Shown piece by piece: positions 1,742 through 4,595 of a stretch of DNA of 64,000 bases. The notes beneath the pieces are model-generated. The model was not told the origin of the DNA. It ran no database searches and saw nothing but the letters and a program-made list of their open reading frames with translations. The number at the start of each line of letters is the position of its first letter. The stretch's first letter is position 1. The translations under genes were made by a program, and so were the position numbers. The DNA lies in contig CAYQES010000003.1 in the NCBI GenBank assembly GCA_964416595.1, forward strand, positions 1,419 to 65,418. The letters are read 5' to 3'. Origin of the DNA: an uncultured Bdellovibrionales bacterium (lineage in GTDB: Bacteria; Bdellovibrionota; UBA1018; CAIPTA01).

Positions 1742-2683
1742 ATGACCGCACGCAAAGGCAAAATCCTGGCCGGGGTGCTAGCGCCCCATCCCCCTCACTT
1801 AGTTTATGGCGAAAATCCCCCCCAGAACGAGCCCCGCTCGGAGGGTGGCTGGGAAAGCCTGCGTTGGGCCTATGAGCGCTGCCGGCAGCGCATTCTGGCC
1901 ATGAAACCCGATGTGCTCTTGGTGCATTCCCCCCATTGGATGACAGTCGTAGGCCACCACTTCCTGGCCGTGGATCGCTTCAAGGGCCTATCGGTGGATC
2001 CAATCTTCCCCCATCTTTTCCGCTATAATTATGATCTCAAAGTGGATGTGGAACTTTCCTTAAGCATCGAAGAAGAAGCAAAAAAAGCCGGGCTCATCAC
2101 CCGTCTCATGAAAAATCCCGATTTCCGCATCGACTACGGAACCATTTGTTCTTTACACCTTATGAATCCCGCCTGGGATATTCCGATCGTGTCCCTATCG
2201 TCTAATAATTCTCCCTACTATTTTTCCAATGAAGTGGGGCAGGAACAGATGGCGATCCTGGGGCAAGCCACAAAGAAGGCCATTGAAAAGAGCGGCCGCC
2301 GGGCGGTTTTGCTGGCTTCAAATTCCATGTCTCACCGGCATTTCACCACGGAACCAAAAATCCCTGAGGATATGAGCCACGAGCATGTGTACCACCACGG
2401 CCAATACCTCTGGGATATGCAGATGCTGAAACTCATGCGGGAAGGCCGGGCCAAAGAACTTCTCGCTGTGCTGCCAGAATTCATCGATATGGCCAGCGCC
2501 GAAGTGAAGGCTGGAGCGCTGGCCTGGATGCTCTCGGCCTTGGATGTGCCGGATTACCCGGCGATCGTGCATGGCTACGGCACCGTGATCGGCACGGGGA
2601 ATGCCGTGGTGGAATGGAACCAGGAAACCCGCGGCCGGGAAAGTTTACCGCCGGAACTCACTCGCGTAGGAGCTTCTTTATGA
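1742..2683 (+). CDS. class III (LigB-type) extradiol ring-cleavage dioxygenase, catalytic beta-like subunit
   Basis: LigB/AmnB-family histidine motifs are present: [19 protein letters not shown] and SNSMSHRH. Confidence 0.7.
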
Positions 2684-3963
2684 TCGTTAAAGCTCTTGTA
2701 GTGCCAGGTTTGCCACAATTGCTCTTGGCTCCCGATAAATCTCCTCCCTGGAAACATTTACGGGAAGCCTACGAACAGGCCCGGAAAGAAATCGAAGCCG
2801 TGGAAGCGGATTTCATCCTCTACTACTCCACCCAATGGCTTTCGGTTTTAGGTTACACTTTCCAGGCGGATCCCGCCCCGGAGTGGACCCACGTGGACCA
2901 CAATTTCCATGATCTAGGATCCATGCACTATAAGTTCCGCATTGATCCCACTTTCGCTTCCGCCTACGCCGAAGAAGTGAAAAAAGACGGCCACCACACC
3001 ATGCTCGCCAACTACCGCGGTTTCCCTGTGGATACGGGCACCATCGTGGCCCAGAAAATTTTAAATCCCAATAACCGCCTTCCGGCTTCCATGGTTTCCT
3101 GCAATATGTACGCGGAGAAAAACGAAACCATAGAACTTGGCCGTGCGGGTCTTCGCGCTTTGGAAAAAACCGGCAAACGGGCTGTGGCAGTGTTGGTGAG
3201 CGGGTTATCGAACCGCTTTTTTGTGAAAGAAATTGATCCCAAGAACGACGCTATTTCCTCCGCGAAAGACGACGAATGGAATCACAAGATCTGCGAACTC
3301 TTGCAGGATGGCCGCTTGGAAGACGTGGCCCAAGTGGCCCGGGATTTTGGCCGGGAAGCCAATGGGGATATGGGTTTCAAGGGCATTTGGTGGCTGAATG
3401 GCCTCTGTGGAGAAACCAATGATTTCTCTGGAAAAGTTTTAGGCTACGGCGCCATCTACGGCACCGGCAATACGGTGGCCGTGCTCACGCCTAATAAACC
3501 TGTGCGTTCTAAAGTTAGGGTGGAAAGCGCGAAGACCGCTGTTTCGGCTGCCTCCGCAGTGATCGATGCCCAAGCGGCCCCAGAGCCCGTGGGGGCTTAT
3601 CCCCACGCACGAAGAGAAGGAGATTTATTGTTTCTTTCTGGGGTTGGCCCTCGGCAAAGAGGCAGCAAAAAAATTCCCGGCGTGGAATTAGATGCTGCGG
3701 GAAATATCACTTCCTATGATGTGGAAACCCAAACCCGCTCTGTGATCCAGAATGTAAAATCGATTTTGGAAGCCGCGGGATCCTCTTTAGATAAAGTAAT
3801 CGATGTGCAGGTGTTCCTCACCAATATGAAAAAAGATTTTCCTGTGTTCAATAAAGTGTACGCCGAACATTTTCAAAACATCCAAGCCACCCGCACCACC
3901 GTGGAAGTAGGGGCCCTCCCCACTCCCATTGCTGTGGAATTTAAAGTGGTGGCCCGGCCTTGA
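2680..3963 (+). CDS. LigB-like non-catalytic alpha-like subunit fused to a C-terminal RidA/YjgF-family (enamine/imine deaminase) domain
   Basis: The N-terminal half is LigB-like but the metal-ligand histidines are replaced ([15 protein letters not shown]). The C-terminal 130 aa carry the RidA signature (DVQVFLTNM...[22 protein letters not shown]). The ATG overlaps the upstream stop (ATGA) and an RBS TAGGAG precedes it. Confidence 0.7.
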
Positions 3964-4595
3964 AAATCTGGGATATCAGCCCGCTTTTAAGTGAGAAAAC
4001 TGCTGTGTTCCCGGGGGACGTGCCTTTTTCCCGGGAGATGAGTTTGTCTTTTACGGGTGGCGATCATTTGGATCTATCTTCCATCCGCACCACTTTGCAT
4101 CTTGGCGCCCATGCGGATTCCAGTTCCCACTATCATGCCAATGGAGAGGGTGTGGATAAGCGGCCTTTGGAAAATTACCTCGGCAATTGCCAGGTGATTG
4201 CGGTGAAAGTTCCCCGGGGGGAACGCATTCTGCCAAAACATATTTCTGTAGAAATCCAAGCCAAGCGCGTTCTTTTCCGCACAGATTCTTTTCCCAATCC
4301 CGACCAATGGAATGGAGACTTTAATTCCCTCTCGCCAGAGTTAATTGAATTTTTAGCCGATCGGGGCGTGGTACTTGTAGGAATTGATACCCCCAGTGTG
4401 GATCCGGCAGACTGTAAAACCCTCGATTCCCACCAGGCTCTTTACCGCCGCAAGCTTTCTGTGCTGGAAGGCATTATCCTGCACCAGGTGAAACCGGGAC
4501 TTTACACCTTAGTTGCCTTGCCACTGCCGCTGAAAGATGGGGACGCCTCCCCCGTACGTGCTATCCTTTTGGAGAAGAACCGGCTCGAACCTTAA
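3960..4595 (+). CDS. cyclase-family hydrolase (kynurenine formamidase KynB / isatin hydrolase-like)
   Basis: Cyclase-family metal-binding motif HLGAHADSSSH, ~210 aa. The TTG start overlaps the upstream stop. Confidence 0.65.
   Translation: MKIWDISPLLSEKTAVFPGDVPFSREMSLSFTGGDHLDLSSIRTTLHLGAHADSSSHYHANGEGVDKRPLENYLGNCQVIAVKVPRGERILPKHISVEIQAKRVLFRTDSFPNPDQWNGDFNSLSPELIEFLADRGVVLVGIDTPSVDPADCKTLDSHQALYRRKLSVLEGIILHQVKPGLYTLVALPLPLKDGDASPVRAILLEKNRLEP

Follow-up and report, generated by a model that had tools for sequence, protein, structure and literature searches.

The 2-aminophenol pathway of the amn/cnb type has been described in several bacteria (PMC3790839, PMC10470539); its classical gene clusters carry two RidA-family genes, and its intermediate 2-aminomuconate semialdehyde cyclises non-enzymatically to toxic picolinate (PMC3790839). 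A related set of enzymes is found in the ARO bacterial microcompartment of Actinobacteria, in which the dioxygenase, dehydrogenase and deaminase are encapsulated and the early reactive steps are kept together (PMC10470539). As cited in a survey of the Rid family (Colabroy & Begley 2005, via PMC4433059), the canonical bacterial kynurenine/3-hydroxyanthranilate cluster includes tryptophan 2,3-dioxygenase (TDO), the kynurenine formamidase KynB, KMO, kynureninase (KynU), HAO, ACMSD, AMSDH and 2-aminomuconate deaminase. The locus analysed here lies in a 64,000-nucleotide stretch (hereafter, the window) of contig CAYQES010000003.1 from an uncultured Bdellovibrionales bacterium, where three consecutive genes (ORF1–ORF3, the trio; Table 1) encode a predicted AmnB-type dioxygenase subunit, an AmnA-type subunit fused to a RidA-family deaminase domain, and a predicted kynurenine formamidase. 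Based on sequence comparison, we somewhat favour the interpretation that the trio provides ring cleavage, deamination and deformylation for a tryptophan catabolic pathway in which 2-aminophenol would be reached by Baeyer–Villiger oxidation and hydrolysis.

Bioinformatics analysis revealed that ORF1 contains a Pfam LigB domain (E-value, 4e-27) and has its best solved relatives among beta subunits, namely 3vsg_B (CnbCb; E-value, 4e-131), 8ihg_A (AmnB; 1e-129) and 7txy_B (4e-119), all from 2-amino(-5-chloro)phenol 1,6-dioxygenases. The structure-database matches to the HpaD/YgiD and DOPA-dioxygenase types are far weaker (3e-12 or worse), and ORF1 groups with true 2-aminophenol dioxygenases rather than with proteins of the HpaD/YgiD type. 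It shares 62% identity with CnbCb across 295 aa, and in the alignment His16, His65, His198 and Glu254, along with the blocks around them, are identical in CnbCb and AmnB; the His/His/Glu set and the further His are presumably the metal ligands and the catalytic residue, as in the structure of CnbC. In the public databases, ORF1 belongs to a 90%-identity cluster of 32 members, most of which bear the JGI name 2-aminophenol dioxygenase beta subunit. A LigB match is also found within the first 268 aa of ORF2 (aa 11–258; E-value, 5e-18), with the alpha subunits 7txy_A (2e-54), 3vsg_A (1e-48) and 8ihg_B (6e-43) as the best solved relatives; this domain is 38% identical to 7txy_A and 32% identical to ORF1, and carries Gly10, Gln52, Asn178 and Asp230 in place of His16, His65, His198 and Glu254 of the beta subunit. 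Since the residues in question are kept in ORF1 and replaced in ORF2, the two are predicted to form an AmnBA/CnbC-type heteromeric Fe(II) extradiol dioxygenase, with a catalytic beta subunit and an alpha subunit that is its degenerate paralogue. The sequence-only reading had assigned the subunits in the same way. The profile and structure-database E-values of ORF1–ORF3 are far beyond chance.

Both gene junctions in the trio are 4-nt overlaps, as had been noted earlier: ATGA at 2680–2683, with the ORF1 stop codon TGA at 2681–2683, and TTGA at 3960–3963, with the ORF2 stop codon TGA at 3961–3963. In the ORF listing, the frame of ORF2 is open up to an ATG at 2614; its start was placed at the ATG at 2680, because the database entry P0001, which is 100% identical, has 427 aa and all of the homologues align from this Met. 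AmnB/AmnA homologues in GenBank/RefSeq were also seen under the label ‘tRNA U-34 5-methylaminomethyl-2-thiouridine biosynthesis protein’ (L088:6992-8774; P0373; H4, H5; L numbers denote loci), apparently a propagated misannotation.

With its 427 aa, ORF2 is unlike the stand-alone solved alpha subunits of 271–279 aa. Its C-terminal part matches the Pfam family Ribonuc_L-PSP/RidA (aa 298–425; E-value, 4e-25), so that the RidA fold proposed for it from the translation is recovered by profile search. The best solved relative of this domain is a 2-aminomuconate deaminase (6izh; E-value, 6e-25; 44% identity), with which it shares an 11-residue insertion absent from the generic RidA 2dyy. Tyr307, Arg405 and Glu420 are invariant in 36 homologues, and the Arg and Glu align with those of 6izh and 2dyy; Arg, Glu and Tyr are the catalytic residues of RidA (PMC4433059). 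When pCNB1 and a P. veronii plasmid were used as sources of references, the domain was found to be 44% identical to the P. veronii AmnD-like protein, as against 27–29% to the AmnJ-like RidA proteins of both plasmids, which are encoded upstream of amnB/cnbCb. A role as AmnJ equivalent was therefore rejected, and the likeness to AmnD suggested by the sequence-only reading stands. Identity rises to 64–65% when the domain is compared with the RidA that is encoded by a separate gene in canonical kynurenine clusters. ORF2 thus ends in a predicted AmnD-type RidA enamine/imine deaminase.

The fusion is not a rarity: a search of public data retrieved at least 120 protein clusters (55–100% identity), all of which have both the LigB and the RidA domain. 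In 120 homologues the linker measures 23–100 aa (median, 36.5) and is rich in A/S/P/V/T. The AlphaFold2 (AF2) model of the fusion protein (mean pLDDT, 90; pTM, 0.68) contains two confident domains, and aa 282–289 are its sole segment with a pLDDT below 50. Based on these clusters, the variable linkers and the two-domain model, the fusion is considered genuine; a frameshift or assembly artefact was rejected, as at least 120 independent homologues carry linkers of variable length. The hosts are metagenome-assembled genomes (MAGs) of Bdellovibrionota/Bacteriovoracia/Oligoflexia and of Acidobacteriota (Thermoanaerobaculia), together with one ‘Deltaproteobacteria’ bin, and the fusion was not seen in cultured Bdellovibrio among the species representatives returned by the genome scan. 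Unfused arrangements exist as well, which indicates that the fusion joins two otherwise separate genes. In L019 (8509-9393) and L020 (8827-9798) the alpha subunit lacks the RidA domain, and no RidA gene is present within the ~8 kb fetched; in L023 (1601-2596 and 3706-4137) RidA is encoded separately, downstream of an asparaginase-like gene. Two further observations concern the distribution of the fusion. A locus binned as ‘Methanobacteriota archaeon’ (L024; JABJFI010000116.1) carries an LLM-AspII-Aldedh ... AmnB-AmnA::RidA cluster (gene names are given below), and this archaeal occurrence is probably due to mis-binning. In some Acidobacteriota loci (L017:8001-10096, L022:8001-9901), AmnA::RidA and KynB are encoded without a beta-subunit gene beside them; these genomes must either carry the gene for the catalytic subunit at another place or lack it.

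ORF3 belongs to the Pfam Cyclase family (E-value, 1e-16); among solved structures, it is closest to the kynurenine formamidases 4cog and 4cob (E-value, 1e-44). The motif H47-x-G-x-H51-x-D53-x-x-x-H57, read from the translation, had already led to its classification as a cyclase-family formamidase, with which these matches agree. Against the NCBIfam arylformamidase model TIGR03035, ORF3 scores 202 bits, which is below the cutoff of 223. A divergent function was considered on this account and rejected: KynB proteins in canonical kynurenine clusters of the same phyla score 185–209 bits and those encoded beside the fusion 183–208 bits, and the low score is therefore lineage-wide rather than function-specific. 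ORF3 is a predicted KynB kynurenine formamidase.

The link to tryptophan comes from related loci. Clustering of the ORFs of 26 fusion loci and Pfam annotation of the representatives revealed a recurrent operon of 7–8 genes in the order TDO, (SDR), LLM, AspII, Aldedh, AmnB, AmnA::RidA, KynB, of which the trio represents the 3' end. LLM denotes a divergent luciferase-like flavin monooxygenase of ~400 aa, AspII an Asparaginase_II (PF06089) protein of ~356 aa and Aldedh an aldehyde dehydrogenase of muconate-semialdehyde type (~481 aa) that is encoded in 17 of the 26 loci. The operon was seen from the fusion side in L005, L010, L011, L019-L021, L024 and L081-L084 and, independently, from LLM homologues in L085 and L086, where the order is SDR-LLM-AspII-Aldedh-AmnB-AmnA::RidA; in L083 and L005 the TDO and LLM frames overlap. 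The closest relatives of the trio (82–83% identity; L082-L084) show the arrangement TDO-LLM ... SNase-AspII-Aldedh-DUF4920-AmnB-AmnA::RidA-KynB-lipoprotein, and in L081-L084, just as in the window, genes for propionyl-CoA carboxylase and methylmalonyl-CoA mutase come next. A gene for a Fre-like flavin reductase (FAD_binding_6 + NAD_binding_1), a candidate partner for LLM, lies divergently upstream of SDR-LLM in two loci (L085:7599-8393, L086:7751-8443). Thus, the proposal of a compact kynurenine-linked aminophenol cassette, made from the window sequence, holds as far as the kynurenine link is concerned, given that the genes are co-operonic with TDO in relatives; the cassette is not self-contained, as it is the tail of a longer operon.

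The same genome scan yielded 56 loci with a stand-alone RidA that is 60–72% identical to the domain of ORF2. These are canonical kynurenine catabolic clusters, as exemplified by L046, in which Pfam analysis identified two FAA_hydrolase genes, KynB, Aldedh, RidA, 3-HAO, ACMSD (Amidohydro_2), kynureninase and KMO. According to tblastn, HAO, ACMSD, KynU and KMO are each present in 22–25 of the 56 loci and in none of the 29 AmnA-containing loci, the window included. Conversely, the asparaginase-like gene was detected in 18 and LLM in 10 of the 29 AmnA-containing loci, while LLM, AspII and AmnAB are absent from all of the 56 loci with stand-alone RidA. In the sampled neighbourhoods, the two modules exclude each other. 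What they have in common is a core of Aldedh (51–57% identity between the groups; next to the separate RidA orthologue in 33 of the 56 loci), RidA, SDR, TDO and KynB. The SDR (adh_short_C2, enoyl-reductase-like) is found in AmnBA-type and canonical clusters (L021:2533-3285, L078:9971-10726 and others) and may act downstream of 2-aminomuconate or 4-oxalocrotonate. On the simplest reading, LLM, the asparaginase-like hydrolase and AmnBA replace KMO, kynureninase, HAO and ACMSD on the way from kynurenine to 2-aminomuconate semialdehyde. By contig-length fingerprints, no contigs were shared between the clusters and the top 120 kynureninase homologues, a weak negative that was not relied on.

The upstream enzymes of the related loci are compatible with such a replacement. 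The operon Aldedh has its best NCBIfam match with 2-hydroxymuconic semialdehyde dehydrogenase (TIGR03216; 575 bits). The AF2 model of LLM (pLDDT, 86) is a luciferase-type TIM barrel, whose Foldseek neighbours include bacterial luciferases and the type II Baeyer–Villiger monooxygenase (BVMO) 3,6-diketocamphane monooxygenase (4uwm), at a TM-score of ~0.6. Sequence-based searches with LLM gave no phmmer match in PDB and no NCBIfam hit, and the profile search returned only marginal luciferase matches (E-value, 5e-4). The asparaginase-like hydrolase belongs to PF06089 (E-value, 5e-46), and the R-S-x-x-K motif of the Ser-Lys nucleophile tandem and the DGC and K-x-GADG motifs of ReAV/ReAIV, the residues of which are essential in ReAV (PMC12292245), each occur in 18–19 of the 19 sequences.

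Based on this gene set, we propose that uncultured Bdellovibrionota, Oligoflexia and Acidobacteriota possess an undescribed tryptophan pathway that does without kynureninase, with the trio as its terminal module. In this pathway, LLM and the class-3-asparaginase-like hydrolase would yield L-aspartate and a 2-aminophenol-type ring, by either of two mechanisms, and would replace KMO, kynureninase, 3-HAO and ACMSD. The proposal, which we consider evenly balanced, is drawn solely from comparative genomics. By the first mechanism, TDO would convert tryptophan into N-formylkynurenine, and KynB would take off the formyl group, either at this stage or after the hydrolysis described below. LLM, acting as a type-II-like BVMO, would then insert oxygen between the ring and the side-chain carbonyl to give a beta-aspartyl 2-aminophenyl ester (or the anilide, after an O-to-N shift), from which the asparaginase-like Ser-Lys hydrolase would release L-aspartate and 2-aminophenol. 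Ring opening by AmnBA would produce 2-aminomuconate 6-semialdehyde, the dehydrogenase would oxidise it to 2-aminomuconate, and the tethered RidA domain would convert the latter into 4-oxalocrotonate and NH3. The side chain of kynurenine is a beta-aspartyl ketone, and oxygen insertion followed by asparaginase-type hydrolysis is chemically economical; the 4-hydroxyacetophenone monooxygenase/esterase route provides a precedent. The Baeyer–Villiger route needs no decarboxylase, which fits the absence of ACMSD.

Several points weigh against this interpretation, and three rival explanations have to be considered along with them. As regards the upper pathway, the identity of LLM to solved structures is no higher than 12–18%, and Baeyer–Villiger chemistry does not follow from its fold. 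In 15 of the 19 asparaginase-like proteins (L082:4980-6053, L083:5438-6520 and 17 other loci), the Zn-ligand Lys of ReAV, part of a Cys-Lys-Cys zinc site, is replaced by Glu (CSGEH versus CSGKH), and the hydrolase was for this reason treated as a separate subfamily and not filed as an asparaginase. The absence of kynureninase and KMO holds within ~10 kb of the clusters. In addition, the alignment of 21 TDO-linked (group-1) beta subunits with three classical AmnB/CnbCb proteins revealed 11 positions at which the former uniformly differ, including a Trp to Arg substitution right after His198 (Arg199 of ORF1; 2336–2338 in the window) and Phe/His to Leu/Leu near Glu254. These lineage-specific substitutions are possible specificity determinants and, being located beside active-site residues, could point to a substrate with a carboxyl group in place of plain 2-aminophenol.

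The substitutions bear on the second mechanism, in which LLM would be a KMO analogue that hydroxylates C3 of kynurenine, AmnBA would cleave 3-hydroxykynurenine, which is an o-aminophenol in its own right, or 3-hydroxyanthranilate, and the hydrolase would perform a C–C cleavage (retro-Claisen, as in MCP hydrolases) to aspartate and 2-aminomuconate semialdehyde. This alternative makes use of an identical set of genes, is equally compatible with the absence of kynureninase and ACMSD and also accounts for an aspartate-releasing hydrolase, and a carboxylate-bearing substituent could fit the changes next to His198 and Glu254. We nevertheless judge it unlikely, although worth serious attention. The beta subunit is closely similar (62% identity) to enzymes acting on small 2-aminophenols, with the blocks around all of the metal and base residues conserved, and no precedent is known for C–C hydrolysis by a protein of the class-3 asparaginase fold. 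Flavoenzymes of the luciferase-like group C typically rely on nucleophilic peroxyflavin chemistry (luciferase, BVMO, SsuD) and not on aromatic hydroxylation. Moreover, 3-hydroxyanthranilate as the substrate would still require kynureninase and a decarboxylase, and neither is found in the clusters.

As regards the window itself, TDO, LLM, the asparaginase-like gene, Aldedh, SDR, HAO, ACMSD, KynU and KMO were not found in its 64 kb by tblastn. In this genome, the place directly upstream of ORF1, occupied by Aldedh-DUF4920 in close relatives, is taken by crcB and an HNH-endonuclease-like gene; this break in synteny cuts the trio off from the other operon genes. The tryptophan link for this genome therefore rests on synteny in relatives (65–85% identity). 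This lack of a tryptophan gene, together with the fact that the closest characterised homologues of ORF1 and ORF2 originate from degraders of nitrobenzene, chloronitrobenzene and aniline, would suit an ordinary xenobiotic aminophenol/nitroarene cassette (amn/cnb/nbz-type), in which the cyclase acts on formanilide or another amide and which has nothing to do with tryptophan. Such a purely xenobiotic role is very improbable in view of the linkage to TDO in relatives and the affinities of RidA and KynB. The score of ORF3 is indistinguishable from those of KynB proteins of canonical kynurenine clusters, and the RidA domain is much closer to canonical kynurenine RidA (64–65%) than to the AmnD-like protein of the aniline-site plasmid (44%). 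Likewise, no MarR/AmnJ, hab/nbz or meta-pathway gene set of the kind present in pCNB1 or P. veronii accompanies the trio, and the hosts are Bdellovibrionota-like MAGs.

The last point concerns the fusion: fusions usually link consecutive steps, and here the two domains serve the first and the third step of the lower pathway. A third explanation would remove this difficulty by letting the tethered RidA act on something other than 2-aminomuconate, either earlier, on the imine tautomer of 2-aminomuconate semialdehyde, which would be converted into 2-hydroxymuconate semialdehyde for a dehydrogenase of the 2-hydroxymuconic semialdehyde type, thereby preventing picolinate formation, or as a general scavenger of reactive enamines. 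The best NCBIfam match of the partner dehydrogenase agrees with it, and the Arg, Glu and Tyr of the domain are those of generic imine deaminases (PMC4433059). On the other hand, the fusion RidA domain contains the AmnD/AmnE-specific insertion, and its stand-alone orthologues (60–72% identity) adjoin the semialdehyde dehydrogenase in canonical clusters, where a role as 2-aminomuconate deaminase is expected; the explanation is accordingly regarded as improbable. For the pathway via 2-aminophenol and 2-aminomuconate preferred here, the formation of picolinate from 2-aminomuconate semialdehyde offers a rationale for tethering: the fusion of deaminase and dioxygenase probably keeps the enzymes of unstable, picolinate-forming intermediates together.

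The remaining features of the window are listed in Table 1; it reaches 1.7 kb upstream of ORF1. Homologues of the predicted lipoprotein (34–62% identity) occupy the same position after KynB in about 10 Bdellovibrionales-type loci (L001-L003, L005, L006, L081-L084), and the lipoprotein gene is possibly the last of the transcription unit. A weak terminator-like hairpin is located 3' of it (5046–5059), at a site type that is no commoner than in shuffled sequence. The promoter/terminator scan as a whole was uninformative, with promoter-like sites rarer than in shuffles and terminator-like sites at background, and an Rfam search of the full 64-kb window returned no family at threshold.

Table 1. 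Positions of the predicted genes and domains of the trio and of its neighbours in the window.
Feature	Position	Strand	Product length or part	Remarks
ORF1, predicted catalytic beta subunit of 2-aminophenol 1,6-dioxygenase type (AmnB/CnbCb), LigB-superfamily extradiol dioxygenase	1742..2683	+	313 aa	
ORF2, predicted non-catalytic LigB domain, alpha subunit (AmnA/CnbCa-like)	2680..3483	+	aa 1-268 of the 427-aa fusion protein	
ORF2, interdomain linker	3484..3570	+	aa 269-297	Flexible
ORF2, predicted AmnD-type RidA domain (2-aminomuconate deaminase-like)	3571..3963	+	aa 298-427 and stop codon	
ORF3, predicted kynurenine (aryl)formamidase KynB, cyclase family	3960..4595	+	211 aa	TTG start
Predicted lipoprotein	4605..5012	+	135 aa	Directly 3' of KynB; no Pfam match
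HNH-endonuclease-like ORF and CrcB fluoride-channel gene	65-1420			Directly 5' of ORF1; HNH match weak (Pfam E-value, 6e-4, below cutoff)
DUF4423-family gene	5166-6095			Downstream of the trio
Propionyl-CoA carboxylase and methylmalonyl-CoA mutase genes	8248-13361			Syntenic with relatives L081-L083

All of the part families and the lower pathway are known, while the alpha::deaminase architecture and the inferred upper pathway are new. No literature was found on the fusion, the operon or a kynurenine-to-aminophenol route, and the Rid-family survey contains no mention of a RidA–dioxygenase fusion (PMC4433059); the fusion is auto-annotated in public data and apparently unstudied. TDO was reported as the most predator-specific gene of predatory bacteria; in obligate predators no other genes of the pathway were detected, and an unknown pathway was suggested (Pasternak et al., PMC4646340). 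The clusters in uncultured Bdellovibrionota relatives provide a concrete candidate for what follows TDO in predators. The textbook chemistry of tryptophan degradation past N-formylkynurenine is built on kynureninase. If the proposed pathway is true, it would constitute a natural bypass of kynureninase, KMO, HAO and ACMSD that yields aspartate instead of alanine and CO2, and thus a new branch of a heavily studied pathway; functions would also be assigned to two large unannotated subfamilies, the divergent luciferase-like monooxygenases and the Glu variants of the class-3 asparaginase fold. Furthermore, the analysis corrects a recurrent misannotation of AmnA/AmnB homologues in public records.

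Compared with the amnBACD/cnbCaCb clusters of Pseudomonas sp. AP-3, P. pseudoalcaligenes JS45, B. xenovorans LB400 and Comamonas CNB-1 (pCNB1), the trio has the same beta-then-alpha gene order, a similar catalytic beta and degenerate alpha subunit (62% and ~38% identity) and a similar AmnD-type RidA (44%), and its relatives encode an AmnC-like dehydrogenase as well. It differs from them in the covalent joining of deaminase and alpha subunit and in its surroundings: a MarR regulator and an AmnJ-like RidA upstream of amnB are missing, as is a neighbouring set of decarboxylase, hydratase and aldolase genes, and KynB (in relatives also TDO, LLM and the asparaginase-like gene) stands in place of nitroarene-reduction genes. 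Its hosts, too, are different, namely MAGs of Bdellovibrionota and Acidobacteriota. With the canonical kynurenine cluster, the AmnBA-type loci share TDO, KynB, the dehydrogenase (51–57%), RidA (60–72%) and SDR, and both routes converge on 2-aminomuconate semialdehyde. In this case the difference is that KMO, kynureninase, HAO and ACMSD are replaced by LLM, the asparaginase-like hydrolase and AmnBA, that the deaminase is fused, and that the predicted side product is aspartate, not alanine and CO2.

The proposed conversion of a ketone into an aryl ester and further into a phenol follows the logic of the aryl-ketone Baeyer–Villiger/esterase routes and of type II BVMOs (diketocamphane monooxygenases (DKCMO), 4uwm), and the luciferase-like fold of LLM and the nearby Fre-like reductase in two loci are also reminiscent of the latter. 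What would set the proposed route apart from these systems is an amino acid substrate, (N-formyl)kynurenine, and a hydrolase of the class-3 asparaginase fold; LLM, with its putative ketone-to-ester activity, is only 14–15% identical to the DKCMO chains (4uwm, 5aec). Finally, the ARO microcompartment of Actinobacteria (7txy; PMC10470539) contains a similar AmnBA-type dioxygenase, aldehyde dehydrogenase and 2-aminomuconate deaminase, and its alpha subunit is the best PDB match of the ORF2 alpha domain (E-value, 2e-54). There, the enzymes are encapsulated in a protein shell, whereas here a gene fusion is found and shell genes are absent, and the fusion may serve the same end as encapsulation; it is a natural example of enzymes linked to each other around intermediates whose cyclisation would otherwise yield toxic picolinate. 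More speculatively, a trimer-forming RidA tethered to a dioxygenase of paired alpha/beta heterodimers would force cage- or lattice-like assemblies, which could channel the unstable aminomuconate intermediates and thus represent a fusion-based counterpart of the actinobacterial ARO microcompartment.

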